From an uncultured archaeon (lineage in GTDB: Archaea > Nanobdellota > Nanobdellia > Pacearchaeales > GW2011-AR1), in contig CABMGO010000005.1 in NCBI GenBank assembly GCA_902385655.1, positions 99,584-163,583 of the forward strand: a DNA stretch of 64,000 nucleotides, read 5' to 3'. Shown here piece by piece: positions 619 to 57,339 of this stretch; position 1 is the first letter of the stretch; each line of letters opens with the position of its first letter. The notes under the pieces are model-generated. The model ran no database searches. It was given only the letters and a program-made list of their open reading frames with translations, and was not told the DNA's origin. The translations under genes were made by a program, and so were the position numbers.

Positions 619-626
619 CTTCCTGC

Positions 627-722
627 AAGGATGATCCCGAATTTTGGTTTTTCCATGCAGGCGAGGGGCGTTCTGCAAGAATGTCACCGAGGATTATCTT
701 GGTTACATGCAGGCGAGGGAAC
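627..722. repeat. Two tandem ~48-bp units of repeat family A (CTGCAAGA-TCAYCCGARAATT...ATGCAGGCGAGGG), also present at 15081-15181, 22430-22480 and 21265-21310
   Basis: Direct sequence comparison of the four loci; units begin CTGCA and end TGCAG (short inverted termini). Confidence 0.6.
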
Positions 723-8807: not shown

Positions 8808-8808
8808 A

Positions 8809-10527
8809 ATGAAAAGAAATAAAAGAGGACAAGCATTAACGATCACACTAATAATCCTAATAATTGTTTTAATCAGTGGAGTTGTTTTACTATATATTAA
8901 TCCCAATAAACAAACAACAGAAAAATGTAATGTAGGTGGAAAAATAGATCCAAAAACGGGAAAATGTGCTTATCTAACTACAAAAGAAGACATAACACTT
9001 CCTCCAAAAACACCAATAAAGGAAAATAATACAAAAATTAATCCTAGAGTAAATATCACAAACCAAACAGCAATAAATTATACTAATTTTAATATTTCAG
9101 AATATGAAGACAATCCTTTTGGTTGGCATCCGGCTTATCCATATGCTAGCGCCTTTGATCTAGGCATTAGATGGCATAGAGATAATCTTATTTGGTCTTT
9201 AGTCCAGCCAGATATCAATAAGGAAGAGTATCAGTTTAAATTTGTGGACGGAGGTAAAAAGGGTAATTTTAACTATGATCAGAACTTTGGCGTTGAAACT
9301 GGAAATTTAAAAAAGATAATAACTATTTTCATTGAGAAAAATTCTCGGACCCCTACAAATTCTTGGGTACCAACTAACATAACAGCCTACCAAAAATATC
9401 TCCAAGTTTTAGTTGAAAGATATGACGGAGACGATAATTTAGGTTGCAAGATCGCTGCTCCAGATTGCTATTCGACTGGAGACAATATGTATCCAAGCCA
9501 AGAAGTTATTGATGGTCTGAAGAAAAACCCAATTAAATATTGGCAGGTAGAAAATGAACCAATTTCACTCAATAAAAAACTTGAAGGTTCAGACCCATCA
9601 AGTGATTTAACTTTTGCTCAGCTACAACGTTTGTCTTATGAAGCAATAAAAACTGCTGATCCTGCAGCTAAAGTCTTACTTGGTAGTACTTCAGGTGGAC
9701 CGGACGGATACATTTCTCAAACCTTAGACCCATGGCAACCAATATTGCAAACATTAGATGGAAAATACGCCGACATTTTTGATCTGCACTGGTATGGTTG
9801 TGCTAAAGGAGATTATCAAATATTAGATACAAGCAATGGACAAGATGTTTTGTCCTACCTAAGAGCAGAGCTTACCGAAACAGGTTTTCCTAATTTACCC
9901 ATTTGGATGACAGAAATGGGAACCAACTCCGGCCTAGCAACTGATGCTAATTGTGGATTACAAACAGAAGAACAACAAGCAAGTGATTATGTAAAGAGAT
10001 ACATTTATGGTTTATCTCACGGAATAAAAAAAATGTTTGGAATCTTAAGTCTTACAGAAGGAACATGGGACAACCCAGAAGATTACTTTAGCAAGACAGA
10101 ACTGATTTATGACGGAGAGGGTTCAAATGACCTCGGTGAAGGTGTTAAAAAACTATCTTATTATTCATACAAGTTAATGACTAATAAACTAGAAGGTTCT
10201 GATTGGAAAAATGTTTTAGAAATTTATAACTCGAGTAATGTTTACGCCTACAAATTCACAAATAAACAAACAGGAAACTTAACTTACATTGTTTGGTGGG
10301 ATTATTGGAATGAGCCAGAGTTAACAACTAAACAAGTAACTATCCCAATTTCTTTAAATGGCAACGTAAAAATAACTCAGGCTGTTCCCCATTTTGAAAA
10401 TGGGTTAATTCTTCAACAAAGCGGAGAAGACTATCCAAATTTTTTTGATACTGAGACTAAACAAGCGAGTAATGGGCAATTAAGTTTGAGTTTACTCAAA
10501 AATCCAGTTTATATAGAACAAGATTAA
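8809..10527 (+). CDS. Clan GH-A (TIM-barrel) glycoside hydrolase with a pilin-like class III N-terminal signal or anchor
   Basis: N-terminus MKRNKRGQ|ALTITLIILI; WQVENEP (acid/base NEP) and IWMTEMG (nucleophile E) motifs; an ORF-track start 9 nt upstream is also possible. Confidence 0.5.
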   Translation: MKRNKRGQALTITLIILIIVLISGVVLLYINPNKQTTEKCNVGGKIDPKTGKCAYLTTKEDITLPPKTPIKENNTKINPRVNITNQTAINYTNFNISEYEDNPFGWHPAYPYASAFDLGIRWHRDNLIWSLVQPDINKEEYQFKFVDGGKKGNFNYDQNFGVETGNLKKIITIFIEKNSRTPTNSWVPTNITAYQKYLQVLVERYDGDDNLGCKIAAPDCYSTGDNMYPSQEVIDGLKKNPIKYWQVENEPISLNKKLEGSDPSSDLTFAQLQRLSYEAIKTADPAAKVLLGSTSGGPDGYISQTLDPWQPILQTLDGKYADIFDLHWYGCAKGDYQILDTSNGQDVLSYLRAELTETGFPNLPIWMTEMGTNSGLATDANCGLQTEEQQASDYVKRYIYGLSHGIKKMFGILSLTEGTWDNPEDYFSKTELIYDGEGSNDLGEGVKKLSYYSYKLMTNKLEGSDWKNVLEIYNSSNVYAYKFTNKQTGNLTYIVWWDYWNEPELTTKQVTIPISLNGNVKITQAVPHFENGLILQQSGEDYPNFFDTETKQASNGQLSLSLLKNPVYIEQD

Positions 10528-10583
10528 AAAAGGCAAAGCAATCCTCTCGTTAAGTCTATAAACTATTTTTGAGTAAATTAATT

Positions 10584-11999
10584 ATGGCAGAAATAAAAAA
10601 AATATCAGAAGTTGAATGGGAGATCCCTAAAGAAAATGAAATGCTAGTACCTGGAAAAGTATTTGCATCAGAAAAACTATTTAAAAAAATAAAAGAAGAT
10701 AAAACTTTACAACAAGTAAAAAATGTAGCTATGCTTCCAGGAATCATCAAAGCAAGCTTTGCAATGCCAGATGCACACCAAGGTTATGGATTTCCAATAG
10801 GAGGGGTTGCAGCATTTGACATTGAAAAAGGAGTAATCTCGCCAGGAGGAGTAGGATATGACATAAACTGTTCAGTAAGATTATTAAGAACAAATCTAAC
10901 AAAAGACCAGATAAAAGGAAAAGAAAAAATTCTAACAAAAGCATTATTCAAAGCAGTTCCAGTCGGAGTTGGTGGAAAAGGAAAATTAAAAATAACTCCC
11001 AAAGAATTAAACGAAATTTTAGAAAAAGGAGCAGAATGGTGCAAAGAAAAAGGTTACGCAACAAAAGAAGACATTGAATTCATCGAAGAAAAGGGATGCA
11101 TAAAAGGAGCAAACTCGAGAAATGTTTCTGACAAGGCAAGAGGAAGAGGAATAAATCAGCTAGGAACTTTGGGAGCAGGAAATCATTTTGTTGAAATGCA
11201 AGTTGTAAATGAAATATTTGATAAGAAAACTGCAGAGATATTTGGATTAAAAAAAGATCAAATAACAATTATGGTTCACTGTGGTTCGAGAGGTTTGGGG
11301 CATCAAGTCGCATCAGATTATATTAAACTAATGGAAAAAGAATATGGCTTTCCAAAACAAGATAGAGAATTGGTTAACGCTCCAATCAAATCAGATCTAG
11401 GAAAAAAATATCTTTCAGCAATGGCAGCTGCAGCTAATTTTGCATTTGCAAATAAACAAATCTTAACACATCAAATCAGAGAAGAATTTAAAAAAATATT
11501 TCCAAAATTTGAAGCAGAACTAGTTTATGATATTTGTCACAACATTGCAAAATTCGAGAAACATGAAATCGATGGTAAAGAGAAAGAAGTTTTGATTATG
11601 AGAAAAGGAGCAACAAGATCATTTGGTCCTGGAAGAAAAGAGCTTCCAAAAGATTATCAGAAAACAGGTCAGCCAATAATTCTGCCAGGATCAATGGGAA
11701 CTTCAAGCTATGTTTTAGTTGGAACAGAACAAGCAGAAAAAGTTTCATTTGCTTCCACAGCACATGGAGCAGGCAGAGTCTCAAGCAGAAGTTTTGCAAC
11801 AAAGAATATAGACTCGAATCAAGTCTTAGAAAAATTAAAAGAAAGAGGAATAGAAGTAGAAGTAGGAAGTCAAAAAGGACTAGTTGAAGAAGCTCCAGAA
11901 GTTTACAAAGACATTGACGAAGTTGCAGAAGTTTCTCAAAAAGCAGGAATCGGAAATTTGGTTGTAAAACTAAGACCTATTGGAGTAGTGAAGGGATAA
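10584..11999 (+). CDS. rtcB: RNA-splicing ligase RtcB
   Basis: Conserved RtcB motifs (GYDINCSVR, GAGNHF, HCGSRG, STAHGAGR); start moved to the first ATG (ORF-track start is TTG). Confidence 0.9.
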   Translation: MAEIKKISEVEWEIPKENEMLVPGKVFASEKLFKKIKEDKTLQQVKNVAMLPGIIKASFAMPDAHQGYGFPIGGVAAFDIEKGVISPGGVGYDINCSVRLLRTNLTKDQIKGKEKILTKALFKAVPVGVGGKGKLKITPKELNEILEKGAEWCKEKGYATKEDIEFIEEKGCIKGANSRNVSDKARGRGINQLGTLGAGNHFVEMQVVNEIFDKKTAEIFGLKKDQITIMVHCGSRGLGHQVASDYIKLMEKEYGFPKQDRELVNAPIKSDLGKKYLSAMAAAANFAFANKQILTHQIREEFKKIFPKFEAELVYDICHNIAKFEKHEIDGKEKEVLIMRKGATRSFGPGRKELPKDYQKTGQPIILPGSMGTSSYVLVGTEQAEKVSFASTAHGAGRVSSRSFATKNIDSNQVLEKLKERGIEVEVGSQKGLVEEAPEVYKDIDEVAEVSQKAGIGNLVVKLRPIGVVKG

Positions 12000-12010: not shown

Positions 12011-12427
12011 TTAAGGATCATCTCTCAAAAGAGGATTACAATAAGCATACTGTTTAATAGATCCAGAATAATTATGTTCTCTGCAGGATTCCTCAAGAAT
12101 GTCAACCAATTGTCTAATTCTACTAGCACTTCCTTTATGAATAGTCCTAGATGCTGAAGGTGATTGATGTCCACGGTAAGAAGTAATACAAATCACCGTT
12201 CGAGTAGGATATTTTTCGACTAAATATTCTATAACTCTTTCTCCGCTCATGTCTGGCAAACCAACATCGACAACGGCAAGATCAAAGCAAGAAGATTCAC
12301 CGATACTAGAAATTGCATCTCGCCCATGAGTATAACGAACTGTCTGATGTCCTTTTTCTTTTTTGAGCATCTCTTCTAACAAAGGTCCAACTTTCGAATC
12401 ATCAACTATTACTATTTTTTTTGTCAT
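12011..12427 (-). CDS. CheY-like receiver domain protein with C-terminal extension
   Basis: IVIVDDS ... FDLAVVDVGLPDMSG ... ITSY. Confidence 0.6.
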   Translation of the reverse strand: MTKKIVIVDDSKVGPLLEEMLKKEKGHQTVRYTHGRDAISSIGESSCFDLAVVDVGLPDMSGERVIEYLVEKYPTRTVICITSYRGHQSPSASRTIHKGSASRIRQLVDILEESCREHNYSGSIKQYAYCNPLLRDDP

Positions 12428-13665: not shown

Positions 13666-14973
13666 TCACTCTTCTTTCCTTTCCACTTTAACCGCGGTCG
13701 GGGCCTCTCCACCATGCCAGGTAAATCTCGGACGAACCCTTATCGGATAAATTCTTTCAGAATTATCATCAAGCAAAATTGCAGAACCTTTTAACCTCGG
13801 AAGCTCATTCATCTTTTGTTTGATACCTTCGTAAACATAACTCTGCATAATTTCATTCAAAGCGCCAACATCTTGTTCAGCAGTAACTCTATGAGACAAA
13901 ACAATATCTGACTGAGTCATCGCATCAGTATGAATTTTTCCTGGCTGCTGAGTTGCAAGAACTAAAGAAATTCCGGGCTGTCTTCCTTCTCTTAAAAGTT
14001 GAATCAACGCATCTGTTGCAGGAGTCTTTCCTTCTTTTGGTAAAAACTCATGAGCCTCGTCGATAAAAATCCAAGTCAAAGGCATACTTCTTTTCATTTG
14101 AAATGCCAAATAATTATACCCATGCTGAACAGATTGAATTTCCTCCTCCCTTCTTGCAGACATTCTCTCGTTGAACAATCTTTTAGAAACTAAACCAATA
14201 ATCAAGCCCCTAACATTAAAACTTCCAGTAGAAGCATACATTGACAAATCGATCACAGTAGTTTTTCCAGGCTCAACCAAATCTCTTATCGGAGTTCCGC
14301 TAACTTCATCAAAAACTTTCCAAGTCTCCGCAGCATCAAAAAGTGCCGAAGTAGCATTCTTAACATCTTGAGAAATATTTTCAGCAGTCTTAATCATCTC
14401 CCGAATATCTTCAAAACTAAAAGAGCCTTTTTGTTTTAATGCTGAGACAACGCTTTCAATCAAAACAGCCTCCGGCTGTGTAAACTTAAGTTCAAAAAGA
14501 GAAACCCAATCATCTGCCTCCAAATCCGAAATCTTTATTGCAAACTCCAAGTCAACAGGAATACCCTTATCATGATACTCATCAAAATAACCAAATGGAA
14601 CAAAAACTTTTACATCAACATTTTTCGGTTCCAAACCCCAATCAGAAAGTAAATCTCGATCCTTATGATTCTTAAATTTCATCGTCCAGAAAATTCCCAT
14701 CGTGTCAAAAATCAAAGAAGAAATATTTTGTGCCTCCTCATAATTTAAAGTAGACAAAGCTTCAGCCATTCCCCCGATAGTATAAGACTTACCGCTTCCT
14801 CTTTTTCCAGCAACAAGAACAACATGACTTCGTGCAACATCCATATAAATCGGATTTGAAAGAGAAGTATATTCTCCCATCTTAACAAAACTCTTACCTA
14901 AAAAAATCAAACCTTTATTCCCGAATAACTTTTTATCACTCTCATTCCTCCCAATAATCACATCAAATGGCAT
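13666..14973 (-). CDS. HerA/FtsK-superfamily P-loop ATPase (DUF87-like)
   Basis: Walker A GKRGSGKSYT; IFIDEAHEF; LVLATQQPGKI, which is HerA-type; promoter module shared with pilin genes. Confidence 0.6.
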   Translation of the reverse strand: MPFDVIIGRNESDKKLFGNKGLIFLGKSFVKMGEYTSLSNPIYMDVARSHVVLVAGKRGSGKSYTIGGMAEALSTLNYEEAQNISSLIFDTMGIFWTMKFKNHKDRDLLSDWGLEPKNVDVKVFVPFGYFDEYHDKGIPVDLEFAIKISDLEADDWVSLFELKFTQPEAVLIESVVSALKQKGSFSFEDIREMIKTAENISQDVKNATSALFDAAETWKVFDEVSGTPIRDLVEPGKTTVIDLSMYASTGSFNVRGLIIGLVSKRLFNERMSARREEEIQSVQHGYNYLAFQMKRSMPLTWIFIDEAHEFLPKEGKTPATDALIQLLREGRQPGISLVLATQQPGKIHTDAMTQSDIVLSHRVTAEQDVGALNEIMQSYVYEGIKQKMNELPRLKGSAILLDDNSERIYPIRVRPRFTWHGGEAPTAVKVERKEE

Positions 14974-14984
14974 AAACTAACATA

Positions 14985-15185
14985 GAAACAAGATATTATA
15001 AACATTTTGAGGATTCTGTCAGCGTAGTTGACATAAACTGTATAATTTATAAAAATCAAACTCTGTTTGATTTAGTTAAGGCTCTGCAAGAGTCATCCCG
15101 AAGATAGGTTTATTTTCATGCAAATTAGGGGCGTTCTACAAGAATGTCATCGAGAATTGACTTGTTTAATGCTGACGAGGGATAA
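14985..15185 (-). promoter_or_regulatory. Conserved pilus-regulon upstream module, copy B: TATA/BRE-like GAAATGTTTATAA ~25 nt before the ATG, a second TTTATAAATTATAC, then two family-A units
   Basis: ~85% identical over ~130 bp to 22330-22480, upstream of a different gene. Confidence 0.55.
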
Positions 15186-15202
15186 ATATTGCGAGGACAA
15201 AA

Positions 15203-15667
15203 CTAAGAGGTCCAGAGATATAACCTAAGAATTTTCGGATTATAATTCTGCAGAGTACTACTAATAATTCTCTCTTCAACAAAAACACTGCTTGTAGTTG
15301 TTATTGAAGATTCGCTAAATGGAGCTGTCGGAGGGCATACAGAAACCTGAACATCGCAAATACCTAAACTATAATTAAATGAGTAACCTTTATTGAAGTC
15401 TGGATCCACTAAATTCGAAGAAACAAATTCTTCAAGAGCAGTATAATTTTCATTCAAGGTTGCATTTCTTAAAGAAGAACTTGAAGCAATGCTTTCAAGA
15501 ATAGTATTTTCTAAATCTGAAACCGTTTTCGCTAATTCCTCACTTTGAACATTGACTTGATTTTTAACAGTTACATAAATCAAAACACCAGACAAAAGAA
15601 GAATAGCAATAACTGCTTCCAAAATTCTTATCCAACCTCTTTTTGTACCAATAGTTAAACTTACCAT
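15203..15667 (-). CDS. Pilin-like protein with class III signal peptide
   Basis: TKRG|WIRILEAVIAILLLSGV N-terminus. Confidence 0.5.
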   Translation of the reverse strand: MVSLTIGTKRGWIRILEAVIAILLLSGVLIYVTVKNQVNVQSEELAKTVSDLENTILESIASSSSLRNATLNENYTALEEFVSSNLVDPDFNKGYSFNYSLGICDVQVSVCPPTAPFSESSITTTSSVFVEERIISSTLQNYNPKILRLYLWTS

Positions 15668-16329
15668 ACTCTAATTATAAAATCTTCATTTATTAATGTT
15701 CCATTCCCATACAAAACAAGTCTCCTATAAACTCCTGCAATTACACTAACCTGCTCGGGAGGTTCCTTTTCCATAGAATATCTACTAGATCTTATAGAAA
15801 AATCAGTATTCGGCAACAAACCTAGTTCTTCCTTGAGCAAAGAATAATTATTAGTATATTTATCGGTAAAATTCTGAAGCTCATAATCAGACAAGACAAC
15901 CAAGTTATTTATGTTTCCTAAAGGATAATCCCTATTCTTGTTACAAGCGGAAAGATTTTGTAATAAAATGTCAGGGGAGTCAGAATAATACAAGTAAGAG
16001 AATTCTGGCCGGGTAGTAGAAATATTTATTACGCCCATATTTTCTGTACCTGGAACTAAAGTTGAATTAAGTCTGCAGGGCTTATTCTTAGGAGCACCGT
16101 CACTAAAATTAACTAAAACACTTGTCAGATTAACCGAAACCGAATTAAAAACACTGTCTTTTAAAGAAATTAAGACGCTATCCTGTAAAGTTTGAGTTCT
16201 AAATGGCTGAATAAAATAAAGCAAGAAAAAAACAAAACCTACAAAGAGAATAAATGAAAAAATTATTTCAATATGAGAGGCAGCTTTTTTTTTACCAAAG
16301 TAGGTTAAATTATTTTTTAAAGAGCTCAA
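15661..16329 (-). CDS. Pilin-like or pilus-associated membrane-anchored protein (TTG start, TTGA-coupled to the upstream gene)
   Basis: N-terminal TM after a basic stretch; many N-x-S/T sequons. Confidence 0.4.
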   Translation of the reverse strand: MSSLKNNLTYFGKKKAASHIEIIFSFILFVGFVFFLLYFIQPFRTQTLQDSVLISLKDSVFNSVSVNLTSVLVNFSDGAPKNKPCRLNSTLVPGTENMGVINISTTRPEFSYLYYSDSPDILLQNLSACNKNRDYPLGNINNLVVLSDYELQNFTDKYTNNYSLLKEELGLLPNTDFSIRSSRYSMEKEPPEQVSVIAGVYRRLVLYGNGTLINEDFIIRVW

Positions 16330-17171
16330 GCACTAACACCTCCGAATATTAATGCAGCCAATGAAGAAATAACTAGCGTTAACCCAATAAGAATGAATGA
16401 ATGTTTTATACCATCTTTCAAGCTGCCTTCAGAAATCTTTCCGATAACCAAGCCAGCAAAAAAAGATTGAACAATCAAAAGCGAAAGTAAAGGAACTTCA
16501 AAATTAACATTGGCTCCAACTTTAATATTCGAGTTCAGATCTTTAAATCCTGCTCCACCAATATCTTTTGTCAAAGGTAAAATTAAGTATTGTAAAACTA
16601 GAACAATCAAAATAAAAATAACAAAAATAATATATCCTTGAACAACCAAATTAAAAACTGCAGATCTCTGTTCCTTTTTCAATTTTTCAGTCTGATCAAC
16701 AGAACCCGAAACCGAACTTAGTATAGAATCAATCTGTCCTCCAGATCTTTCAGCCTCGGAAATCAAACCAACAGCTCTTTTTATCACAGGACTTTTCGAA
16801 TCGCTGGCAAAATTAACCAATGCAGTAGTAAGGGGAATCCCCAAAGCAATTTGGTTACCTAACTTTCTTACATGAATCGTAAGTGCACCATAATCTCTTG
16901 ATTGAACATTCAAGATTGCTTTTGCAATTGGAGTACCAGATTTTACATTTTCGACCAAGTCCCTAACAAATTCCAGAAATTTAGAATCTTTTTCTTTCTG
17001 TTTTTTTGAAACTAACACATTTTCAGAAACAAATGGCAATAACATTAATACAAAAATAACTGAAACTAAGAAATATTTGAACCTAGCAAGAGAAGGAGTA
17101 TTAAAAAATATAAAAATAAAAACTATCAAAACAGTCCCGATTCCCGCATAGATAAAATTTCGAGTTTTCAT
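16326..17171 (-). CDS. Type II secretion system F-domain membrane protein (TadB/TadC / half-FlaJ-like)
   Basis: T2SSF-like segment GIPLTTALVNFASD...ISEAERSGG with flanking TM helices. Confidence 0.6.
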   Translation of the reverse strand: MKTRNFIYAGIGTVLIVFIFIFFNTPSLARFKYFLVSVIFVLMLLPFVSENVLVSKKQKEKDSKFLEFVRDLVENVKSGTPIAKAILNVQSRDYGALTIHVRKLGNQIALGIPLTTALVNFASDSKSPVIKRAVGLISEAERSGGQIDSILSSVSGSVDQTEKLKKEQRSAVFNLVVQGYIIFVIFILIVLVLQYLILPLTKDIGGAGFKDLNSNIKVGANVNFEVPLLSLLIVQSFFAGLVIGKISEGSLKDGIKHSFILIGLTLVISSLAALIFGGVSA

Positions 17172-17267
17172 TTTGCGAATCAGTTCATCTTCGCAAGGTA
17201 ACGAGCTAGTCGAGTTACCGCTAACTTCCTTGCGAACTTCAAGTTTATTTGATTAAATGTGAGCATG

Positions 17268-18509
17268 TTATTTAGGCTGTTTGATTTGTAAAAAAATCAA
17301 GAAAAATATATTTAATAATGCCACAACCACTATAGATGAAGTTAATAAAAAGTTTGGTGTAAGTCCAACATCGAATCCAGTAGCAGTCATGATTACAATA
17401 AGCATAACTAAAATTAGAGGAGCAGTAATAAGGACGCTGATATAGATATCCATGAAAGTCGCAGCGAGACTGTTATATTTCTCTCGTTCCAATTTAAAGT
17501 CAGTTAACAAATTCTCAGATTTTTTCTCAAGATAATTTTTAAGAGAACCACCGGAAACAATATTTGTCGCCATTCCCCCAAGAAGTTCAGAAAGTTTTTC
17601 GCTAGGAGTGGTCTTCGCAATATTCCTTAATGCAGTGACTAAGTCATAACCATAAACTTCGACCTGATTTACAACTTTTCTCATTTCTACTGCAACATTC
17701 TTATATTCTGGATTGTTAGAAATTATCTTAAAAATACTTGTCGGTTCTATATTAGATCCTGCGATTGCAGACATGTATATCGTCGCAAACGGAAGTTCGT
17801 TTCTAATTTTCTGATCTATCGATCCCTTTTCCAAAGAAGGATAAAAATAGTAAAAAGTGAAAGATAAAAAAGTAAGTAAAAAAGGAACCCATAAGTATAC
17901 GAAAGCAGAAGGAACAGCCAAGCCTAATAAAATAAAAAAGATCATACTCCCAAAGAAAACACTTAAGGAAACAAAGATAGCAATAGCAAGATAAGTGGAC
18001 AACATAAAACGAGAATTAGAATCCTTCAGATCTTTTTTTAATTCAGAAAAATTTTGAATCGCGAGCCTCTCAGTAAAACTCCCAAAGATAGAATTAGAAT
18101 ACTTGGCAAGTAAACTCGGTTTTTCTGAACCAGCAATTTCCCTCTTAGGAGAAATCTTCTTCATACTTTCTTCGCCCAAATTCAAATCCTTAAGAAATTT
18201 TTCTCTGTCTTCTTTATTCAAGGTGACCAAATTAGATTTCCCGTCTTGAGTATAACGATAACTTTCTGTCTTTATATTTTTAGTAGATCCAGTTTCTGGA
18301 TCTAATTTTTTAACAGCAGAAATCTCTCCAAGTATTGAAGGGATTGCCTTGCTTACTAACAAAAGTCTGGAAAAAAGAGAGTCAGCTGAAGAAAGATAAA
18401 CTTTCCTTTGTTTCGGATCAGAGTACTTCAAAGCCTGGTCTGCTTTTCTTAAGTCAGAAATAATTTTCCGCATCTCAAGAACATTATTTCTCAATTTCTC
18501 AACACTCAT
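17268..18509 (-). CDS. Type II secretion system F-domain membrane protein (TadC/FlaJ-like)
   Basis: ELPFATIYMSAIAGSNIEPTSIFKII T2SSF motif; multiple TM. Confidence 0.65.
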   Translation of the reverse strand: MSVEKLRNNVLEMRKIISDLRKADQALKYSDPKQRKVYLSSADSLFSRLLLVSKAIPSILGEISAVKKLDPETGSTKNIKTESYRYTQDGKSNLVTLNKEDREKFLKDLNLGEESMKKISPKREIAGSEKPSLLAKYSNSIFGSFTERLAIQNFSELKKDLKDSNSRFMLSTYLAIAIFVSLSVFFGSMIFFILLGLAVPSAFVYLWVPFLLTFLSFTFYYFYPSLEKGSIDQKIRNELPFATIYMSAIAGSNIEPTSIFKIISNNPEYKNVAVEMRKVVNQVEVYGYDLVTALRNIAKTTPSEKLSELLGGMATNIVSGGSLKNYLEKKSENLLTDFKLEREKYNSLAATFMDIYISVLITAPLILVMLIVIMTATGFDVGLTPNFLLTSSIVVVALLNIFFLIFLQIKQPK

Positions 18510-18667
18510 GCTGACTCCTCAATTATTTTTTTATTTATTTCAAAAATTGTCGCCTTAATTGAGTTTGCCTCATCGATTTTATTTTCATTTACGCTCTTCT
18601 CAAGCTTCCTAATTAATTCATCTAAAGAGCCAACTAAATGCGACAACACCTCAATATCCCTACTCAT
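18506..18667 (-). CDS. Small (~53 aa) coiled-coil ORF, ATGA-coupled to the platform gene; below the ORF-track cutoff
   Basis: Read manually on the minus strand; conserved pilus-type promoter CGAAACATTAATAAATG upstream. Confidence 0.3.
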   Translation of the reverse strand: MSRDIEVLSHLVGSLDELIRKLEKSVNENKIDEANSIKATIFEINKKIIEESA

Positions 18668-18817
18668 ACTCCACAGAACCAAAATTCATTTATTAATGTT
18701 TCGTCGAAGAATGAGACGAATGAACTGTTTCATGCAGTGCTTTCGTCGAGAGACAAGAAAATAACTAATCAACTCGAAACGAATGAAGTGAGGAACCACT
18801 ACTTTTGTCGAATATAA

Positions 18818-20341
18818 CTAAGCTATTCCGAACCTGCTCAAAACCTCTTTAGGATCTCTGTAATAGTCATTAATTAACCTCTGAAGAGAATCAAAATCGA
18901 CCTCTTTTCCACGCTTATATATTTCATAGATTAATTTAACCCTTAAGTCAAAATCCTCTTGTAATTTCTGAACAGCTATTCCGTTTTTCTGTTCAATTTT
19001 CTTAAAAACATGATTTTCTCTTTTATAAAAGAACTTATCTCTTGCAGGATCCCAAATAAAGGGAGTATTTGTCTGAAATGTTCCATCAGGATTTACATTG
19101 ATTACCTCGACAATTTCTCTCAACTTTCTTGTCTCCTTCCCATTTACAACAGCATGAGCCATAATTGCTACCGCGTCTAGCTCATTTACAAGTGTTGGTG
19201 ACAATTCAATAGGGGGAGTTTCAAGTCTTCGAATAACTGTCTCAACAGAATCTGCGTGTATAGTGCTAATAGAAGCGTGACCTGAAGCCATACCCTGAAA
19301 CAAAACGCTAGCTTCCTGACCTCTAACTTCCCCGACAATTACATAATCCGGCAACTGTCTGAAAGAAGCCCGAAGTAAACTGAACATATCAACCTCGCCA
19401 ACACCTCCAGCAGTAATTCCAGTTCTAACTACAGAAGGCAACCAATTTTCCCGAGATAAATTCAATTCACGAGTATCTTCAATCGAAACAACTCTTGCTT
19501 CTGGAGGAATAAAAAATGCAATCGCATTTAACAAAGTAGTTTTACCCGAACCAGTTCCACCTGCAATTAAAACATTTAATTTGTATTGCATCATCATCCA
19601 AAGATAAGCTAACATCTCTGGAGAAAGAGTTCCAAAACCAACAAGTTGAATCGGAGTCCAAGGTGTCTTAGTAAATTTTCTAATTGTAAAAGTAGGTCCT
19701 CTAGAGGTAATGTCTTTTGAATAAGTTGCATTTACTCTTGAACCATCAGGTAAAGTACCATCTAAAACTGGAGAAGCATAAGAAATATATCTTCCACATT
19801 TTTGAGCCAATTTCTCAACAAAACTCGCAAGTTTTTCCATATCATTAAACTGCAATTTTGTTTTAATATTCCTAAAAATTCTATGAACAATAAAGACTGG
19901 TTGACCAATTCCATTACATTGAATATCTTCTATAAAATAATCATGCATCAATCCTTCAATCTCATTCAAACCAAAAAAGTTACGATAAAGAAAATAAAAT
20001 ATTTTATCATAAGACTCTTCTGAAACTTCTAATGCAGACTCCGAAATAACTAATCTAAGTAGCTTGTCTAAATAAGTTTCAGAATCTTGGCCGTCCTGAC
20101 TCATTACGGTGCTTACATTAATCATTTCTCGAAGAGAAGATTCGAGTTTGTCTAACAGCTCTAGTTCAGATTGATCCAATATTGGCTCCTCTAAATCATA
20201 AACAACTTCTCCCTGTTTTTGATCCCAATAAATATGAGCATTTGCATAAGGAGCAATTAAAGGATAACGAATATCAATCAAAGTTCTATCAGGACTAAAT
20301 TGAATCGTAGGAACTCGCACATTATAGTTTAATCTAGACAT
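18818..20341 (-). CDS. Archaeal type IV pilus/archaellum-type assembly ATPase (FlaI/TadA/CpaF family)
   Basis: Walker A AGGTGSGKTT, VSIEDTRELNL, conserved His-box region. Confidence 0.85.
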   Translation of the reverse strand: MSRLNYNVRVPTIQFSPDRTLIDIRYPLIAPYANAHIYWDQKQGEVVYDLEEPILDQSELELLDKLESSLREMINVSTVMSQDGQDSETYLDKLLRLVISESALEVSEESYDKIFYFLYRNFFGLNEIEGLMHDYFIEDIQCNGIGQPVFIVHRIFRNIKTKLQFNDMEKLASFVEKLAQKCGRYISYASPVLDGTLPDGSRVNATYSKDITSRGPTFTIRKFTKTPWTPIQLVGFGTLSPEMLAYLWMMMQYKLNVLIAGGTGSGKTTLLNAIAFFIPPEARVVSIEDTRELNLSRENWLPSVVRTGITAGGVGEVDMFSLLRASFRQLPDYVIVGEVRGQEASVLFQGMASGHASISTIHADSVETVIRRLETPPIELSPTLVNELDAVAIMAHAVVNGKETRKLREIVEVINVNPDGTFQTNTPFIWDPARDKFFYKRENHVFKKIEQKNGIAVQKLQEDFDLRVKLIYEIYKRGKEVDFDSLQRLINDYYRDPKEVLSRFGIA

Positions 20342-20424
20342 CTTTTTTCACCTAATTACGAGAAAGAAAACTAGTTTAAATATTTAATCAAAGCGACTCG
20401 ACAGCAAAACTTTCTCATCTAAAA

Positions 20425-20590
20425 ATAGATAACTTTAGAAGATAAAAATAGTTAAAGAAAACTTTGCGATTCCAAAAAGATGGCTAACACAAAATAATTC
20501 ACGGGTGGGTCTTGCCGAAGGCAAATGAGTGGGAAATTTAGAATCGCAAAGTTTTCGACCAAAACCAGACCACTCGCATTCACTCAAAAA
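20425..20590. repeat. Conserved structured element family S, copy 1 (candidate ncRNA or cis-regulatory RNA)
   Basis: Shares GATAACTTTAGAA...GGGYGGG-[hairpin]-AGTGGGARATTAGA-[stem]-AGTTTTCGACCAAAAC with 36085-36258 and 49938-50025; hairpins covary. Confidence 0.5.
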
Positions 20591-20591
20591 A

Positions 20592-21131
20592 TTACTTAAA
20601 ACTCAGATCAACATTGAGTAAACCGCCAACATTCTTGCTAGTAACTGTTACTGTATAGGGAGTAGGAGCAGATTCAAAGGCGTAGTTACTTTTAGCACCA
20701 TCCAAAGTCAGATTAAATCCATAATTTGAAGAAACAGACACATTATAAGGCCCATTTCCTCTCGTCAAAATGTAAATACTCCCAAGTTTTACAGGACGGT
20801 CAATCTCGCTATATTTGTACACAGAATTAAGAGCCCACGATATAGAATTATTAGTACTATCCACATTTATCTCCCCTTGATTAATTTTAACAGAAAGTAC
20901 TCTTCTATTCCCCGGAGCTAACTGAACCTCAGCTATTTGGTCATTTATCTTGTTCATAGAATCAATGGTTTGTTCAATCAACATTCTATCTCGAACACTA
21001 TCTATTTTAGGCTTTGCAAAAGCAAGAACTAAACCAATTAGAGCAAGAGCAATCAAAGTGTAAATTACAGTTTCAATCCAAATTTGCGCCCTTCGTGAAT
21101 TTCCTAAACTAACTCTCTTTTTCTCGAACAT
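20592..21131 (-). CDS. Pilin-like protein (N-terminal TM, RRAQIWIETVIYTLIAL)
   Basis: Type IV pilin-like N-terminus with Glu at +5-like position. Confidence 0.5.
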   Translation of the reverse strand: MFEKKRVSLGNSRRAQIWIETVIYTLIALALIGLVLAFAKPKIDSVRDRMLIEQTIDSMNKINDQIAEVQLAPGNRRVLSVKINQGEINVDSTNNSISWALNSVYKYSEIDRPVKLGSIYILTRGNGPYNVSVSSNYGFNLTLDGAKSNYAFESAPTPYTVTVTSKNVGGLLNVDLSFK

Positions 21132-21264
21132 AGAATCAAATATATTCCAATCTTTTAAAACCTATCTAAAGGAGAGGCCGTGTAGAGGAAAATTTTTCAC
21201 TCTTCTTTGAAAAGTAAATGGTTCCTATTTATGACTAAAATAGACTCGAAGAATAAAAAATTTT

Positions 21265-21310
21265 AAATCCCGAATTTTAGAAGTCTTTACGCAGTTGAGG
21301 GAAAGACCAC
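21265..21310. repeat. Family A repeat unit, copy D, ~135-180 bp upstream of pilin gene 20592-21131
   Basis: CCCGAATTTTAGAAGTCTTTACGCAGTTGAGGGAAAGAC matches copy C. Confidence 0.5.
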
Positions 21311-21368
21311 CCATTTCAAAGTGTCCTTCCATGCGGAAGGAAAATAAAAAAATAAAATTAAATTATAT

Positions 21369-21848
21369 TTAGCACTTTACTAGTGCAACCTTTGGCCCAA
21401 CTGTACAAGTTGTATTTGTCTTTCCAGTTGTTACTATAGAAGCTACAGCAACACTTACTGCTTTAGTATCTGCATATTTTAGATCATTAAGTAATGTTGT
21501 TTGCTCAGTATTAGCAGCCATATTTCTAACATCTAAAATAGTCGAAGCAGACCCTCCATCAGAAGTATAAACAATAACTTGAGCGTAACTTACATTTGCC
21601 TCAGAAGAAGCCTTAGCTACCTTAACAGAAACGCTACCAGTAGCATTTTGATAAGAACAAGTGTATTGATCATCAACAACAGATAAAGCACTACTTGCTT
21701 TGAAACAAACCGCCCCAGAAGTAGTATTGTCCCTTATCATTGGAATAACTACAGTCCAAAGTACAGCAATAGCCGCAACAGTTATCATAATAATTAAAAC
21801 AACTGAAACAACTTCACTGACTCCTTTCTTTTTTTGCATTATTTTCAT
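21369..21848 (-). CDS. Class III signal-peptide pilin
   Basis: MKIMQKKKG|VSEVVSVVLIIMITVAAIAV; strong SD AGGAGG 7 nt upstream of this ATG (ORF-track start is an upstream TTG). Confidence 0.6.
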   Translation of the reverse strand: MKIMQKKKGVSEVVSVVLIIMITVAAIAVLWTVVIPMIRDNTTSGAVCFKASSALSVVDDQYTCSYQNATGSVSVKVAKASSEANVSYAQVIVYTSDGGSASTILDVRNMAANTEQTTLLNDLKYADTKAVSVAVASIVTTGKTNTTCTVGPKVALVKC

Positions 21849-21872
21849 TTCATAACCTCCTTTCAAACTTAG

Positions 21873-22319
21873 TTAAAGATTTACTACCCTGCCATTTTCA
21901 AGACAAGTATAAGCTTTATTATTTCCTGAAACCGTTCCTAAAATAATCGGATAGATTACCAAAGTTTTAGTTCCAGATTGAATAGGTATATCTTGAGTAG
22001 CTGAACTGCCAACATCTACAGGAATGTTAAAAGCATTTTGAGTTGAACTAGCTCCACTTGAAGATTTAATTTCAAAACCATAAATAGGAATACTTCCTCG
22101 GTTAACAACTTGCAAATTAAGAACTCCAGACGGTGAAGGGCTTGCGGAGATATCTAAACTTACCGATTTACAAACATTATTTGCAGATACGCCATTTTTT
22201 TGAACAGATTCAGAAATAAAAGCTCGAGACCACATAAAGATTATAATCGCAAGAACAATAACAAGTCCAATTAAAAGAACTGTTGCAATAATCGGTGAAA
22301 CCCCTTTGTTATTAGTCAT
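21873..22319 (-). CDS. Class III signal-peptide pilin
   Basis: MTNNKG|VSPIIATVLLIGLVIVLAIIIF. Confidence 0.65.
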   Translation of the reverse strand: MTNNKGVSPIIATVLLIGLVIVLAIIIFMWSRAFISESVQKNGVSANNVCKSVSLDISASPSPSGVLNLQVVNRGSIPIYGFEIKSSSGASSTQNAFNIPVDVGSSATQDIPIQSGTKTLVIYPIILGTVSGNNKAYTCLENGRVVNL

Positions 22320-22329
22320 AAAAATCCTA

Positions 22330-22480
22330 AATGAAACATGTTTATAAACATTTCGCGAAACTATCGACGTAGTTGATATAATTGTATAATTTATAAAAAT
22401 TAAACGGAGTTTGATTTAGTTATGGCTCTGCAAGAGTCATCCCGAATTTTGGTTTGTCTTTATGCAGTTGAGGGGTAAAG
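22330..22480 (-). promoter_or_regulatory. Conserved pilus-regulon upstream module, copy C (TATA/BRE-like element ~25 nt from the ATG plus a family-A unit)
   Basis: Alignment with 14985-15185. Confidence 0.55.
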
Positions 22481-22488
22481 ATTGTCTT

Positions 22489-22983
22489 CTAGCAAGATAA
22501 AGACTGTTTAGAAATGTAATTACTACAATATACATTTTTTCCATTTTTTTTCAAAAATGGTTGAACATCAACAAAAGTTAGATAACCAGAAATATTTTTG
22601 TGAGGAATTTCATCTGTCTGATTAACTAAAGAATAATAATCTGAATAAACTTCACCAGCAGCCAAAGGTTTTCCAGTCCTATTTAAGGTATAAAGCCCGA
22701 GCTTTGCCAAAGTCAAGTTGTTTACACGAATTATGTATCCATCAACATCAAAAAGCCCTTTATTCTCAATAGTCAAATTGAGAGATTTTGTAGCACAAGA
22801 ATAATTATAGTCCCTAATAACTAATCCCACATTTTCTTCACACTCAGCAAGACCATTTTCAGAAGGAACGTAATCCTTCAACCAAACATAAACCATACCT
22901 GCCAAAGAAAGCGAAATAGAAATAAGCAAAACATAGGCAACAATTTCGCTAACTGCTCGTTTACCGGCGACTTGAACTACCAT
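22489..22983 (-). CDS. Class III signal-peptide pilin
   Basis: MVVQVAGKRA|VSEIVAYVLLISISL; TGATG overlap with the upstream gene. Confidence 0.6.
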   Translation of the reverse strand: MVVQVAGKRAVSEIVAYVLLISISLSLAGMVYVWLKDYVPSENGLAECEENVGLVIRDYNYSCATKSLNLTIENKGLFDVDGYIIRVNNLTLAKLGLYTLNRTGKPLAAGEVYSDYYSLVNQTDEIPHKNISGYLTFVDVQPFLKKNGKNVYCSNYISKQSLSC

Positions 22984-23624
22984 CAACCACCTTCCTGAGC
23001 AGACAACAAATTTCCTGCAGTAGTATTAGCTCTAAAAACAAAGTAATACTGATTGCTGGATGCCTGTGCTTTAGTCAAATCAATACTGTAATTTATTCCT
23101 CCAGACTCAACAGTTAAATTCTGATATGAGTTGATGTTTACCTTACTACTTTTTGGAGAATGATGAACACTACTCGTAGATGCGCCACCACTAATTCCAG
23201 TTTCAACAGTCGTTGTTCCTGGCCCGATGCTAACTGGCAACTGAGAAGGCAAATAAAGAATAATATCATAATTACCATAATTGTCACAAGTTAATTCATT
23301 CGAAGAAGTAGTATAACACGTAAAAATATCCAATTCTGGATAAGAATTCAAAACCGCAGCAACACTATCATTTACAAAATTAGCTACTTGAGAATTTCCG
23401 CTATAAAGACTGTAGTCTACCACTGCACCAGTCTCCTGATTTAATTGAGAACTATAGCTATAAAATTTTTTAGAAGATTCAGGAACATTAACAACATTGT
23501 AAACAACGCCCAAACCGATAATAATCACAGCAAGAATAACTGCCGCCAAAATAAAAAACTGACCTTTCCTATTTAGAATTTGAAATTTGAAATGATCCCT
23601 CTGGGAACCCCTTTTACTTTTCAT
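22983..23624 (-). CDS. Pilin-like protein (start reassigned to the first ATG)
   Basis: NRKGQ|FFILAAVILAVIIIG; conserved promoter CGAAACATTAATAAATG ~25 nt upstream. Confidence 0.5.
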   Translation of the reverse strand: MKSKRGSQRDHFKFQILNRKGQFFILAAVILAVIIIGLGVVYNVVNVPESSKKFYSYSSQLNQETGAVVDYSLYSGNSQVANFVNDSVAAVLNSYPELDIFTCYTTSSNELTCDNYGNYDIILYLPSQLPVSIGPGTTTVETGISGGASTSSVHHSPKSSKVNINSYQNLTVESGGINYSIDLTKAQASSNQYYFVFRANTTAGNLLSAQEGG

Positions 23625-23643
23625 AGATAACAAACATAATAAG

Positions 23644-23664
23644 CATTTATTAATGTTTCGCGAG
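23644..23664 (-). promoter_or_regulatory. Pilus-type promoter motif CTCGCGAAACATTAATAAATG (BRE/TATA) ~25 nt upstream of the pilin ATG; near-identical motifs at 18684-18704 and 15676-15700
   Basis: Three-way conservation at equivalent distance from start codons. Confidence 0.5.
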
Positions 23665-25066: not shown

Positions 25067-25149
25067 GCCGACATCGCATAGTGGTATTGCATCAGGTTGC
25101 TAACCTGAGCCCTTTACTGGGCCCCAGGGTTCGATTCCCTGTGTCGGCG
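25067..25149 (+). tRNA. tRNA-Ser (anticodon GCU), long variable arm, no encoded CCA
   Basis: Manual fold: acceptor GCCGACA/TGTCGGC, anticodon stem TCAGG/CCTGA with loop TTGCTAA, variable hairpin GCCC..GGGC, T-arm CAGGG-TTCGATT-CCCTG. Confidence 0.85.
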
Positions 25150-25560
25150 TTGAATAGATTGAGCAAAGTGAAATCTATTGAAATCTGATTCTGGAATCGA
25201 ACCTAGGTTCGTATTCCCTGAAAAAATTTCGCTCTTGAGAAATATTTGCGTTAGCAACTAAAGTTGAGAAAAGTACAAGAGCAAAATTTTTTGTGTCGGC
25301 GTTTATGCTATCGAAGAATGAGATAGCAATTATTCTACATGGAATTGAACCCTGGGTTCGACGAATAAAACGCTCCGAGAAAATATTTCTGTCAACTAAA
25401 TTTATTTTCGAGGTACATTTTGTGAGCCTCCCTGTGTCGGCGTTTTTTCTGGCTTCACAAACGTTTCTAAAAATGAAGAGCAGAAAAAACGAAGTCGAGA
25501 TGTGTTTTTTGAAAAAGGTTGCTAACCTGAGCCCTTTACTGGGAATGAAGCGCCTTGATT
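25150..25560 (+). repeat. Tandem degenerate ~145-155-bp repeats; two units end in a 12-15-nt copy of the tRNA-Ser 3' end, and one carries a 28-nt exact copy of the anticodon-stem/variable-arm segment
   Basis: CCCTGTGTCGGCGTT at 25137 and 25434; TGTGTCGGCGTT at 25294; AGGTTGCTAACCTGAGCCCTTTACTGGG at 25095 and 25517; unit-internal hairpin GGAATYGAACC..GGTTCG. Confidence 0.6.
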
Positions 25561-26171: not shown

Positions 26172-27040
26172 ACTTTTGAAAGTTTCTTTAGTCTATTTTC
26201 TAAAACAGGCAAACTAGAATTAATTTTTTGAAGCCTCTCATGATACGAACTTGTTCTAACGTTATAAGTTAAAGCAGATATCTTATTCTCTTTAAATCGA
26301 TCAGTTTGTGCCTTTTTAATAAGTTCAGAAAGTGTGCTTTTCTCAGAATGTAATTTTCTAACTGTCATCCTCAAAAATCTAATTCTTAATTTAACATAAA
26401 CAAAATAAGTAAAGAAAATTAATATAACAATAAAAATAGTTATCTGTATCCAGTATCGATAAAAAAAGTTTCTCGCCTGTAATGCCAAACTTTTGAAAAT
26501 AGAATTATTTCCATATTCAGAATCATAAGAAGTTCTAAAACTCTCTAAATAGGTTTGAGACTCATTTAGCCTACCATTATAAAAAGAATCTCGCGCCAAT
26601 AAAAAGTAGTTAGAAGTTTCATTAGAAATAGGATCAGATAATTTTTTTTGCTCAAGATTTAACAGATCATACAAATCCAAAGTTTGCGAGCGAATATCTG
26701 AAACTCGGTTTGTCAAAGCAACGACATCTGAATACTGCAAATTCTTCCAATTTATAAACTGAAGTGCACTTCTTGCATCAATTCTTTCTTGCAAACTAGA
26801 ATTAACTTCTCCACGCAAAATTTGAGCATAAAGAACTTGTATGTAAACATTCTTCGCCTCGACAATTGTATCATTGATATCTGAGTAAGGCAAACTAAGA
26901 TTGATAAACTCATTCAAAATTTTTTCACTATTATTTATTGCGATCAATGCATCTTGAGCAGAATATGTCTGATTTGCTTCCGCCGCTAAAACAAAACTTC
27001 CAAAAAATAAAAATAGCGATAATAAAATTAACTTTTTCAC
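26168..27040 (-). CDS. Secreted or anchored coiled-coil protein (signal peptide, C-terminal TM anchor preceded by FFYRYW, short cytoplasmic tail); GTG start, GTGA-coupled to the giant gene
   Basis: N-terminal signal MKKLILLSLFLFFGSFVLAAEA; C-terminal TM; overlap aaGTGAaa. Confidence 0.5.
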   Translation of the reverse strand: MKKLILLSLFLFFGSFVLAAEANQTYSAQDALIAINNSEKILNEFINLSLPYSDINDTIVEAKNVYIQVLYAQILRGEVNSSLQERIDARSALQFINWKNLQYSDVVALTNRVSDIRSQTLDLYDLLNLEQKKLSDPISNETSNYFLLARDSFYNGRLNESQTYLESFRTSYDSEYGNNSIFKSLALQARNFFYRYWIQITIFIVILIFFTYFVYVKLRIRFLRMTVRKLHSEKSTLSELIKKAQTDRFKENKISALTYNVRTSSYHERLQKINSSLPVLENRLKKLSKV

Positions 27041-40330: not shown

Positions 40331-40380
40331 AAAATAAGTATACAAAAGAGATTTTTAAATTTTATGAAAATTAAAATAAA

Positions 40381-42193: not shown

Positions 42194-42209
42194 ATCACGA
42201 TAAAACAAT

Positions 42210-57254: not shown

Positions 57255-57339
57255 TTTATTAAGATTTAAAATAAGTTTTGATTAACAAAAATTCTAAAAA
57301 AAGATAAAATTATTACAAGATCTTCCGCAACTACCAACC

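Follow-up and report, generated by a model that had tools for sequence, protein, structure and literature searches.

The 64,000-nucleotide stretch of archaeal DNA considered here (the window; contig CABMGO010000005.1, G+C about 33%) encodes on its minus strand, from position 23624 down to 13666, a type IV pilus (T4P) locus (15203–23624) and, immediately downstream of it, a HerA-like ATPase (13666–14973). The initial annotation of this DNA had noticed that the ATPase gene and one of the pilin genes have closely similar upstream regions and had read this shared module as an argument that the ATPase is co-regulated with the pilus and possibly a functional part of it. Comparison with related genomes points away from a pilus component: the adjacency goes back to a single inherited rearrangement and the module to a strain-specific repeat insertion. 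We consider it probable, though well short of certain, that the gene encodes a housekeeping protein, for which the name mini-HerA is used here, that came to lie beside the pilus operon through inherited synteny, and that the module is a young insert peculiar to this strain.

The neighbourhood of the HerA-like gene was compared in 80 loci (given L numbers below), one genome per GTDB species, in which open reading frames (ORFs) were called and clustered and the clusters annotated by tblastn with the proteins of the window. A locus counted as informative when 4 kb or more of sequence was available upstream of the HerA-like gene; 33 such loci encode a HerA-like protein with 66% identity or more to that of the window, and 28 encode one with less than 66%. 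In the first group the genes for a platform protein (T2SSF) and for two pilin-like proteins (pl5 and pl6) are found directly upstream in 29 of 33 loci and a gene for RFC in none, whereas in the second group pilus genes are upstream in 3 and RFC in 18 of 28. Trm5 follows within 4 kb in 18 of 34 loci of the first group and in 19 of 24 of the second. In the 29 linked loci of the first group the pilus genes and the HerA-like gene are always on the same strand, with the latter directly downstream of pl5-pl6. Neighbor-joining (NJ) analysis of the HerA-like proteins unites the pilus-linked loci in one clade, to which the RFC-linked loci are sister; the outgroup consists of three loci, one of which (L154) has an RFC gene nearby. 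Since the linkage is limited to one clade, it can be traced to one rearrangement that was then inherited. A pilus accessory should be co-localised with pilus genes independently in several lineages; what was found is linkage in one clade of the HerA-like tree. The co-occurrence with pilus genes elsewhere that the initial annotation had asked for does exist in many related genomes, but it is confined to this clade and is missing from the sister group and from more distant homologs, so that the accessory reading is not favoured. That the less identical group consists of paralogues from the same genomes was considered and rejected, because the 80 loci are from different assemblies (by eye) and Trm5 is downstream in both groups. 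The HerA-like genes of the two identity groups are positional orthologues.

The behaviour of individual loci is instructive. In L001 and L013 the order is pilins, T2SSE, family-B DNA polymerase (PolB) and HerA-like gene, and the T2SSF-pl5-pl6 block is gone; the HerA-like gene therefore does not travel with the platform block. The polymerase gene (7389–9839 in L001/L013) lies between the pilus ATPase gene and the HerA-like gene (78% identical), at the usual position of platform, pl5 and pl6. In L016 and L038, both members of the linked clade, the pilus neighbours are lost entirely. Four distant full-length homologs have no pilus genes near them: one from Nanoarchaeia (50% identity) is near RFC, PAN and Trm5, one from a DPANN archaeon (49%) near SMC/ScpA/ScpB, and one from Aenigmarchaeota (37%) among ribosomal and RNase P genes, while the fourth, L155 from a metagenome (38%), adjoins genes for UvrD/PD-(D/E)xK helicase-nucleases. 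The RFC, PolB and SMC neighbourhoods fit a housekeeping role. The HerA-like gene is thus anchored to its chromosomal neighbourhood rather than to the pilus genes.

In the window, too, the surroundings are those of the relatives. A Trm5/TYW2 gene (5662–6504, Pfam) is present a few kb beyond the HerA-like gene, and the product of 12011–12427 is a receiver-domain protein matching Response_reg. The ORFs 7739–8365, 8397–8807 and 10569–11999 are taken as Ogg-like, archease and RtcB genes solely by the resemblance of their N-termini to the corresponding families in relatives. Judging from the gene order between 5662 and 12427, background synteny is strong in this lineage even among genes without functional relation.

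The promoters bear on the same question. Across the relatives the HerA-like gene has a TATA element 20–30 nt before its ATG within a spacer of 30–44 nt, both behind pl6 and behind RFC; having its own TATA whatever gene precedes it, it would be a transcription unit of its own. In the window the native proximal promoter is AAATGTTTATAA (14996–15007, minus strand), which is conserved in L007 and has TATA-like counterparts in nearly all relatives. The element recognised there by the initial annotation, a TATA box with transcription factor B recognition element (BRE), is thus present about 22 nt before the ATG, but the 12-mer is not enriched in the window (5 matches with up to 1 mismatch versus 2.66 expected) and is of the generic TTTATAA type. 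Indeed, most genes of the window have a TTTATAA- or CTTAAATA-like box about 22–31 nt before the ATG, so that the motifs of the locus appear to be ordinary archaeal BRE/TATA promoters giving near-leaderless transcripts. For the 14-mer AACATTAATAAATG there are 3 exact copies in the window (0.12 expected), all in this cluster and on the minus strand, and each of them ends exactly 19 nt ahead of an ATG, namely those at 15667 (pl6), 18667 (an ORF of 53 aa) and 23624 (pilin-like protein 1); the initial annotation had indeed noted a related motif ahead of three more genes of the locus. L005, L006, L007 and L040 also have the 14-mer, there within the coding sequence of pl5 and 20 nt ahead of pl6. By its sequence and fixed spacing it marks what looks like a 17-nt BRE/TATA variant specific to the pilus locus.

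The similarity of the two upstream regions, given as about 85% by the initial annotation, is 84% over about 150 nt. Local alignment of 15131–14977 with 22475–22327, upstream of the HerA-like gene and of the pilin gene 21873–22319, yields 125 matches in 149 ungapped positions; the ungapped repeat 15036–15131 versus 22380–22475 is likewise 84% identical, and a 23-nt core common to both regions has exactly 2 occurrences where 0 are expected by chance. The similarity ends a few nt ahead of each ATG. It does not, therefore, stem from a duplication that includes coding sequence, an explanation the initial annotation had held against its own proposal, but the module did turn out to be a strain-specific insertion or duplication. 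From 5′ to 3′ the shared stretch has an about 50-nt unit, the palindrome AAATCAAAC-N3-GTTTGATTT, a TATA-like TTTTATAAATTATAC and, at about 22 nt from the ATG, the proximal AAATGTTTATAA. The inserted non-coding copy A (15014–15192, approximate boundaries, minus strand) has two tandem about 50-nt units (15132–15181 and 15081–15131), the palindrome AAATCAAAC-AGA-GTTTGATTT at 15053–15073 and the distal TATA-like TTTTATAAATTATAC at 15040–15054. It is flanked on both sides by TCCTC (15193–15197 and 15009–15013), possibly a target-site duplication. Copy B (22359–22488, minus strand), inserted or duplicated and also non-coding, comprises the tail of one unit and a full unit (22425–22475), the palindrome AAATCAAAC-N3-GTTTAATTT at 22397–22417 and TTTTATAAATTATAC at 22384–22398.

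That the module is an insert can be seen from the closest comparison loci, L007, L005 and L006, whose HerA-like proteins are 97, 95 and 86% identical to that of the window. The gap between pl6 and the HerA-like gene is 229 nt in the window versus 44 nt in L007, 34 nt in L005 and 36 nt in L006 (median 44 nt over 43 loci), and the four-way alignment reveals a clean insert of about 185 nt (about 15014–15192) in the window, with the promoter and the coding flanks aligned. The gap holding copy B measures 169 nt, and in relatives the corresponding gaps between pilin genes have a median of 37 nt. Five solid copies of the about 50-nt unit were located at three sites with an nhmmer search using a hidden Markov model (HMM) of the unit (E 1e-12 to 1e-14): besides the three already given, they are 669–719 and 621–668, two tandem units (619–720, minus strand) that directly follow the stop of a plus-strand gene (4–618) unrelated to the pilus locus. 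A further unit claimed upstream of another pilin gene, at 21265–21310, is a weak partial match only (21268–21301, E = 0.17). The unit is absent from the related loci L001–L004. When metagenomes were scanned for the unit core TTCGGGATSAYYCTTGCAG, this gave 64 matches, none of which extended past the pattern (best E of the unit HMM about 4e-4 over about 25 nt), and these are regarded as chance. Convincing terminal inverted repeats were not seen in the about 50-nt repeat element. Rfam, searched with gathering thresholds in the whole window and with E-value thresholds in 14950–15230, gave tRNA-Ser (25067–25149) only; that the module is a known RNA was rejected, since no family matched. The module is one of several small elements, inserted or duplicated in this strain only, and was duplicated locally. 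With copies missing from the 97, 95 and 86% identical relatives and units at 619–720, the argument from the shared module to co-regulation or a pilus role falls away: it is no sign that a joint regulation of HerA-like gene and pilus has evolved and been conserved. This does not mean that the module is without effect, and in this one strain it may influence both genes.

The HerA-like protein (435 aa) matches Pfam DUF87 with 39.1 bits (cut-off 23.2) and has the Walker A motif GKRGSGKS and the Walker B motif WIFIDEAH, with ATQQP noted by eye; alignments of the homologs show little or no variation in GKRGSGKS and DEAH. No transmembrane (TM) or hydrophobic segment was found in it. A first structure prediction from a shallow alignment, with members at least 71% identical, was unusable (predicted local distance difference test, pLDDT, 53.7), and when homologs of 31–50% identity were added AlphaFold2 (AF2) gave a model with a pLDDT of 88.4 and a predicted TM-score (pTM) of 0.89. 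The top Foldseek matches of this model in the PDB are the archaeal HerA structures 9x1l, 9x1m and 4d2i (E 2e-19 to 5e-17, best 2.4e-19; query TM-score, TMq, 0.59–0.66). Ahead of the P-loop strand the model has only the strands 5–7, 22–32 and 35–45, and the protein is about 65–145 residues shorter than the solved archaeal HerAs (about 500–580 aa).

More than 6300 homologs were found, the best 120 of which are all at least 71% identical; homologs are from metagenome-assembled genomes labelled Woesearchaeota, Pacearchaeota or Nanoarchaeota, which places the archaeon of the window in DPANN, as one of Woesearchaeales/Pacearchaeales type. The HerA-like protein is more conserved than the pilus ATPase of the same loci (about 72–75% versus 62–65%). 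Many homologs (e.g., P0121, P0125, P0127, P0271) are interrupted by inteins, one or two each (Intein_splicing, LAGLIDADG), with insertion points behind the lysine-serine of Walker A and close to Walker B, whereas the copy in the window is free of them; inteins at the P-loop and Walker B are typical of conserved core enzymes. The scores with the NCBIfam equivalogs are far below the respective cut-offs: 32.4 bits versus 970 for HerA NF040819, 27 versus 800 for NF040937, 40.1 versus 600 for CedD, which is the top match although a very weak one, and 16.1 versus 700 for CedB. Neither the canonical HerA of double-strand break repair, with an equivalog score and adjacent NurA, Mre11 or Rad50, nor an import ATPase of the Ced/Ted type, with an equivalog score and a membrane anchor or CedA-type partner, is what was found here: NurA, Mre11 and Rad50 are absent among the Pfam- or family-annotated neighbours in the window and the related loci, and a Sir2, nuclease or CedA-like partner was not detected beside the gene. 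We place the protein, on its sequence and predicted fold, as a HerA-clade member of the FtsK-HerA superfamily in an uncharacterised "mini-HerA" subfamily. A viral or Zot-like identity, suggested by matches to PHROGs terminase and Zot families, was rejected in view of the lack of partner genes and of the core-gene behaviour.

Taken together, the following sequence of events is proposed. The product of 13666–14973 would be a soluble, compact P-loop ATPase of the HerA clade, probably a hexameric translocase for double-stranded DNA that serves chromosome replication, repair or segregation, and its gene a core gene, vertically inherited in this archaeal group under its own promoter. A single ancestral rearrangement would have placed the pilus locus, presumably read from several leaderless-type BRE/TATA promoters, three of them sharing AACATTAATAAATG, upstream of the HerA-like gene in one clade. 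A young non-coding element of about 150–185 nt, made up of the about 50-nt hairpin-bearing units, the palindrome and a TATA tail, appears to have landed just upstream of the native HerA-like promoter, and about 150 nt of it to have been copied before the major-pilin gene, or in the reverse direction. In this strain both genes might have gained a second promoter or operator from the element.

Not everything fits a housekeeping protein in an inherited position. The same-strand adjacency, always after pl5-pl6 in the 29 loci, has persisted while the pilin-like neighbours fell to 25–35% identity; in L035, L051 and L086 the stop codon of pl6 overlaps or adjoins the start of the HerA-like gene, as in an operon; and the T2SSF-T2SSF-pl5-pl6-HerA-like block is intact in 8 loci in which T2SSE and other pilins are elsewhere. 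It should also be noted that, with neither NurA nor any usual HerA partner adjacent, the housekeeping role is one that we infer, and that the about 150 nt of upstream sequence common to both genes make local co-regulation possible. These points lend some substance to the idea that in the Woesearchaeales clade the HerA-like ATPase is a true pilus accessory, a DNA motor docked at the platform that would pull pilus-captured host or environmental DNA inward, by analogy with the Ups pili and Ced ATPases of Sulfolobales or the ComGA pili and ComFA of Gram-positive bacteria. DPANN archaea rely on their hosts for nucleotides, which is in line with this idea, as is the HerA/FtsK-type translocase fold. 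The best NCBIfam match, weak as it is, is to the DNA-import ATPase CedD, which is essential for DNA import and of which orthologues without TM domain exist (PMC11823120). The CedD score is, however, only 40 bits versus 600, and in the scanned cluster and its immediate flanks there is no gene for a CedA/VirB6-like channel or a ComEC-like protein; the HerA-like protein itself lacks a TM segment. Moreover, the linkage traces back to a single rearrangement within one clade. Pilus genes are missing beside the gene in the sister group, which has RFC upstream, and in the four distant homologs, three of which have housekeeping neighbours (SMC/ScpAB, RFC/PAN/Trm5, ribosomal/RNase P). Where the pilus genes have moved (L001, L013, L016, L038), the gene is still found near Trm5; its promoter is its own irrespective of the upstream gene. 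A pilus accessory is therefore judged unlikely, and unlikelier by a shade is its more specific form, in which a compact HerA was recruited to the end of the T4P operon in one large Woesearchaeales-like DPANN clade as an import motor for DNA or another polymer, scavenging host nucleic acids. If true, it would suggest a route by which the genome-reduced DPANN episymbionts obtain DNA or nucleotides from their hosts, and a pilus-coupled HerA would be an addition to the T4P for which archaeal and Tad-type systems offer no described example.

The second alternative concerns the module, which could be a functional cis-regulatory cassette, with a palindromic operator, a second promoter and protein-binding units, through which one regulator acts on the major pilin gene and the HerA-like gene in this strain. 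In both copies, 84% identical over about 150 nt as they are, the stem of the palindrome is kept while the loop differs (AGA versus TCC), and the palindrome stands directly upstream of TTTTATAAATTATAC; the 6-bp hairpin of the about 50-nt units shows 3 compensatory pairs among 5 copies; and both inserts are immediately 5′ of a native BRE/TATA. Yet the module is absent in the closest relatives and so is no conserved feature of a regulon, units are also found behind an unrelated gene, and folding of the whole module was on either strand no better than that of shuffled sequence (z = -1.2 and -1.6), with no Rfam match. In addition, all the spacers of the locus are inflated by other palindromic inserts, which argues for passive accumulation of small elements. 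Such a cassette is accordingly held to be improbable, and a young, strain-specific insert remains the preferred reading of the module. Least probable by far is that the HerA-like gene encodes the ATPase of an anti-virus defence system (of the Sir2-HerA, DUF4297-HerA, TdpAB or MADS type) lying beside the pilus by chance: PADLOC mad8 matches over the full length (E = 3.5e-23), several defence HerA models match as well, and many Foldseek matches are defence HerA complexes, but these rank behind the repair HerAs of Thermococcus kodakarensis and Saccharolobus solfataricus, an effector partner (Sir2, nuclease, DUF4297) is not adjacent in the window or in relatives, and the gene, a core gene present in one highly conserved and syntenic copy and prone to inteins, is unlike the patchy genes of defence islands, so that a defence identity was rejected for want of partner genes and because of this core-gene behaviour.

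As for the pilus locus itself, all of its genes are on the minus strand, in the order five pilin-like genes, T2SSE, the 53-aa ORF, two T2SSF genes, pl5 and pl6, and are followed by the HerA-like gene. ORFs and Pfam bear out the inventory of the initial annotation (7 pilin-like proteins, a FlaI/TadA-type ATPase, a split platform and the DUF87/HerA-like ATPase), from which the 53-aa ORF was missing. The class III signal peptides were assigned by inspection and regular-expression search of the translations; all 7 pilin-like proteins have a short basic leader followed by a [KR][GA] motif and a hydrophobic helix (KG/VSPIIATVLL, KKG/VSEVV, KRA/VSEIV, RKG/QFFIL, RRA/QIWIETV, KKA/ASHIEII and KRG/WIRILEAV). 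Pilin-like protein 1 (22983–23624; 213 aa from the ATG at 23624; ...NRKG/QFFILAAVILAV) has the 14-mer 5′ at 23644–23657, is without match in the Pfam scan and corresponds to family 18 of the ORF clustering in relatives. Pilin-like protein 2 (22489–22983; KRA/VSEIVAYVLLI), the start of which overlaps the stop of the upstream gene, has a weak match to Pfam DUF7289. The canonical pilin (21873–22319; KG/VSPIIATVLLIGL), likely the major pilin, is preceded by the proximal BRE/TATA GCGAAATGTTTATAA at 22342–22356, and its orthologues in relatives have a TTTATAAA-type promoter at the equivalent position. Pilin-like protein 4 (21369–21848; KKG/VSEVVSVVLII) has a Shine-Dalgarno-like GGAGG 5′, as in relatives, and pilin-like protein 5 (20592–21131; RRA/QIWIETVIYTLIAL) belongs to family 8, which in relatives is kept directly upstream of T2SSE.

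The secretion/assembly ATPase (T2SSE, FlaI/TadA-like; 18818–20341) scores 116.6 bits with Pfam T2SSE (cut-off 24.9) and 378 bits with NCBIfam FlaI, which is under the cut-off of 550. Between it and the platform genes is the small conserved 53-aa ORF (18506–18667), with the 14-mer 5′ at 18687–18700 and no match in the Pfam scan; ORFs of 52–56 aa are found at its position in L004, L005 and L006 and family 32 in other loci, a match that is positional only. The platform protein is split into a long half (17268–18509) with T2SSF at residues 245–370 and a short half (16326–17171) with T2SSF at residues 68–193, one domain each (55.8 and 51.0 bits, Pfam cut-off 25.2), and as N- and C-terminal halves the two match NCBIfam ArlJ/FlaJ models. 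Gene pl5 (15661–16329; KKKA/ASHIEIIFSFILF) carries in its 3′ end the 14-mer promoter motif (15687–15700) of pl6 (15203–15667; KRG/WIRILEAVIAILL), the final pilus gene ahead of the HerA-like gene. Judged by these genes, region 15203–23624 has the content of a standard archaeal type IV pilus locus of the type IV filament (TFF) family with split platform: ATPase, platform and class III pilins are all encoded, and a Peptidase_A24 gene was not found among the Pfam-scanned ORFs (the cluster and several flanking ORFs), in agreement with the initial annotation. The prepilin peptidase may be encoded elsewhere in the genome. A regular-expression scan of the whole window for multi-TM GxGD proteins flagged a single one, a presenilin-type signal peptide peptidase (SPP, PF06550; 1104–1976, plus strand); that it might process class III signal peptides is speculation. 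Outside the pilus locus, between the archease and RtcB genes, a 575-aa protein without Pfam match (8800–10527, plus strand) has an N-terminus like a class III signal peptide (MKRNKRGQALTITLIILII) and could be a large pilin-like adhesin.

The spacers of the pilus locus are inflated relative to the medians in relatives, namely to 229 versus 44 nt (14974–15202), 96 versus 1 nt (17172–17267), 250 versus 43 nt (20342–20591), 237 versus 75 nt (21132–21368) and 169 versus 37 nt (22320–22488). Palindromes are seen in several: arms of 20 nt, 95% complementary, at 20457–20476 and 20537–20556, and TTCGCAAGG...GGTAAC...GTTACC...TTGCGAA in spacer 17172–17267. Since every spacer of the locus is longer and several hold palindromes, this genome seems to accumulate small non-coding elements; the pattern suggests their repeated insertion. 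A second inverted-repeat family with AAAAAATTTCGC-like arms is present at 924–995, 25221–25292 and 21189–21264, one copy being just after the tRNA-Ser gene (25067–25149), and a 125-nt direct repeat, 74% identical, at two intergenic sites far apart (761–885 and 57283–57407). Elsewhere in the window, 27037–34083 (minus strand) is a gene in which units of about 855 nt are repeated (repeat families D2, D4, D6 and D7) and whose product, of 2348 aa, is probably a large surface protein. Downstream of a gene for a 1150-aa protein (42210–45662) there are tandemly duplicated gene pairs (39953–42208, minus strand), each a protein of about 124–130 aa, whose N-terminus looks by eye like a response-regulator receiver, followed by a partner of about 177 aa; 40939–41184 and 41847–42092 are 83% identical.

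Two lessons of wider use emerge. Upstream identity within one genome can stem from mobile non-coding repeats and need not mean a regulon. And mini-HerA, a very highly conserved, intein-prone core family of Woesearchaeales/Pacearchaeales with no NurA nearby, merits functional assignment.

How does the module compare with known mobile elements? Repetitive extragenic palindromic (REP) and miniature inverted-repeat transposable element (MITE)-like elements and "mobile promoters" are short interspersed palindromic repeats. The module broadly resembles REP/MITE elements in consisting of short, hairpin-bearing non-coding units in several copies, in their arrangement as intergenic tandem pairs, in its variability among close relatives (it is absent in L005, L006 and L007) and in insertion just upstream of promoters. 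It differs from them in having no clear terminal inverted repeats, in that a possible 5-bp TCCTC duplication is seen at one copy only and in lacking a linked transposase; there are only 5 units in 64 kb, and copies outside this genome were not found in the related loci or the metagenome scan.

The pilus locus has the features of archaeal TFF systems with split platform: one ATPase of the FlaI/TadA family, two tadC/T2SSF genes and several class III pilins. Such systems have been described as the Epd-like pili of "clade/system 1" and as subsystem 4A (Makarova et al., 2016, PMC4858521; bioRxiv 10.64898/2026.04.22.720090), and they occur in DPANN archaea (bioRxiv 10.64898/2026.04.22.720090). The locus of the window differs in that no dedicated A24 prepilin peptidase (EppA/PibD) was found among the Pfam-scanned ORFs. 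Neither the literature searches nor the two surveys (PMC4858521; bioRxiv 10.64898/2026.04.22.720090) yielded any mention of a HerA/DUF87 gene in pilus loci of DPANN archaea.

With the HerA of HerA-NurA end resection (S. solfataricus, 4D2I; T. kodakarensis, 9X1L/9X1M) mini-HerA shares the fold, the DUF87 core and Walker A/B. It differs in length, 435 versus about 500–580 aa, and, according to the model, in an N-terminal beta-hairpin of about 45 residues that would replace the full HAS barrel; sequence identity to the solved archaeal HerAs is 15–16%, and NurA, Mre11 and Rad50 are not adjacent. Like CedD and CedB of the crenarchaeal Ced import system, mini-HerA belongs to the FtsK-HerA superfamily, but the similarity is remote and there is no CedA, CedA1 or CedA2 among the genes scanned. 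CedD and CedB, as a rule anchored in the membrane, work with CedA/CedA1/CedA2, which are T4SS-like (type IV secretion system-like) and not parts of a type IV pilus; the two ATPases thus belong to a T4SS-like importer, and the Ced genes are encoded outside the ups operon (PMC11823120). Nevertheless, the Ups pili of Sulfolobales do cooperate with CedB/CedD as separate DNA-translocating ATPases (PMC11823120), and Ups together with Ced is the nearest functional precedent for a pilus with a separate motor of the FtsK/HerA type.

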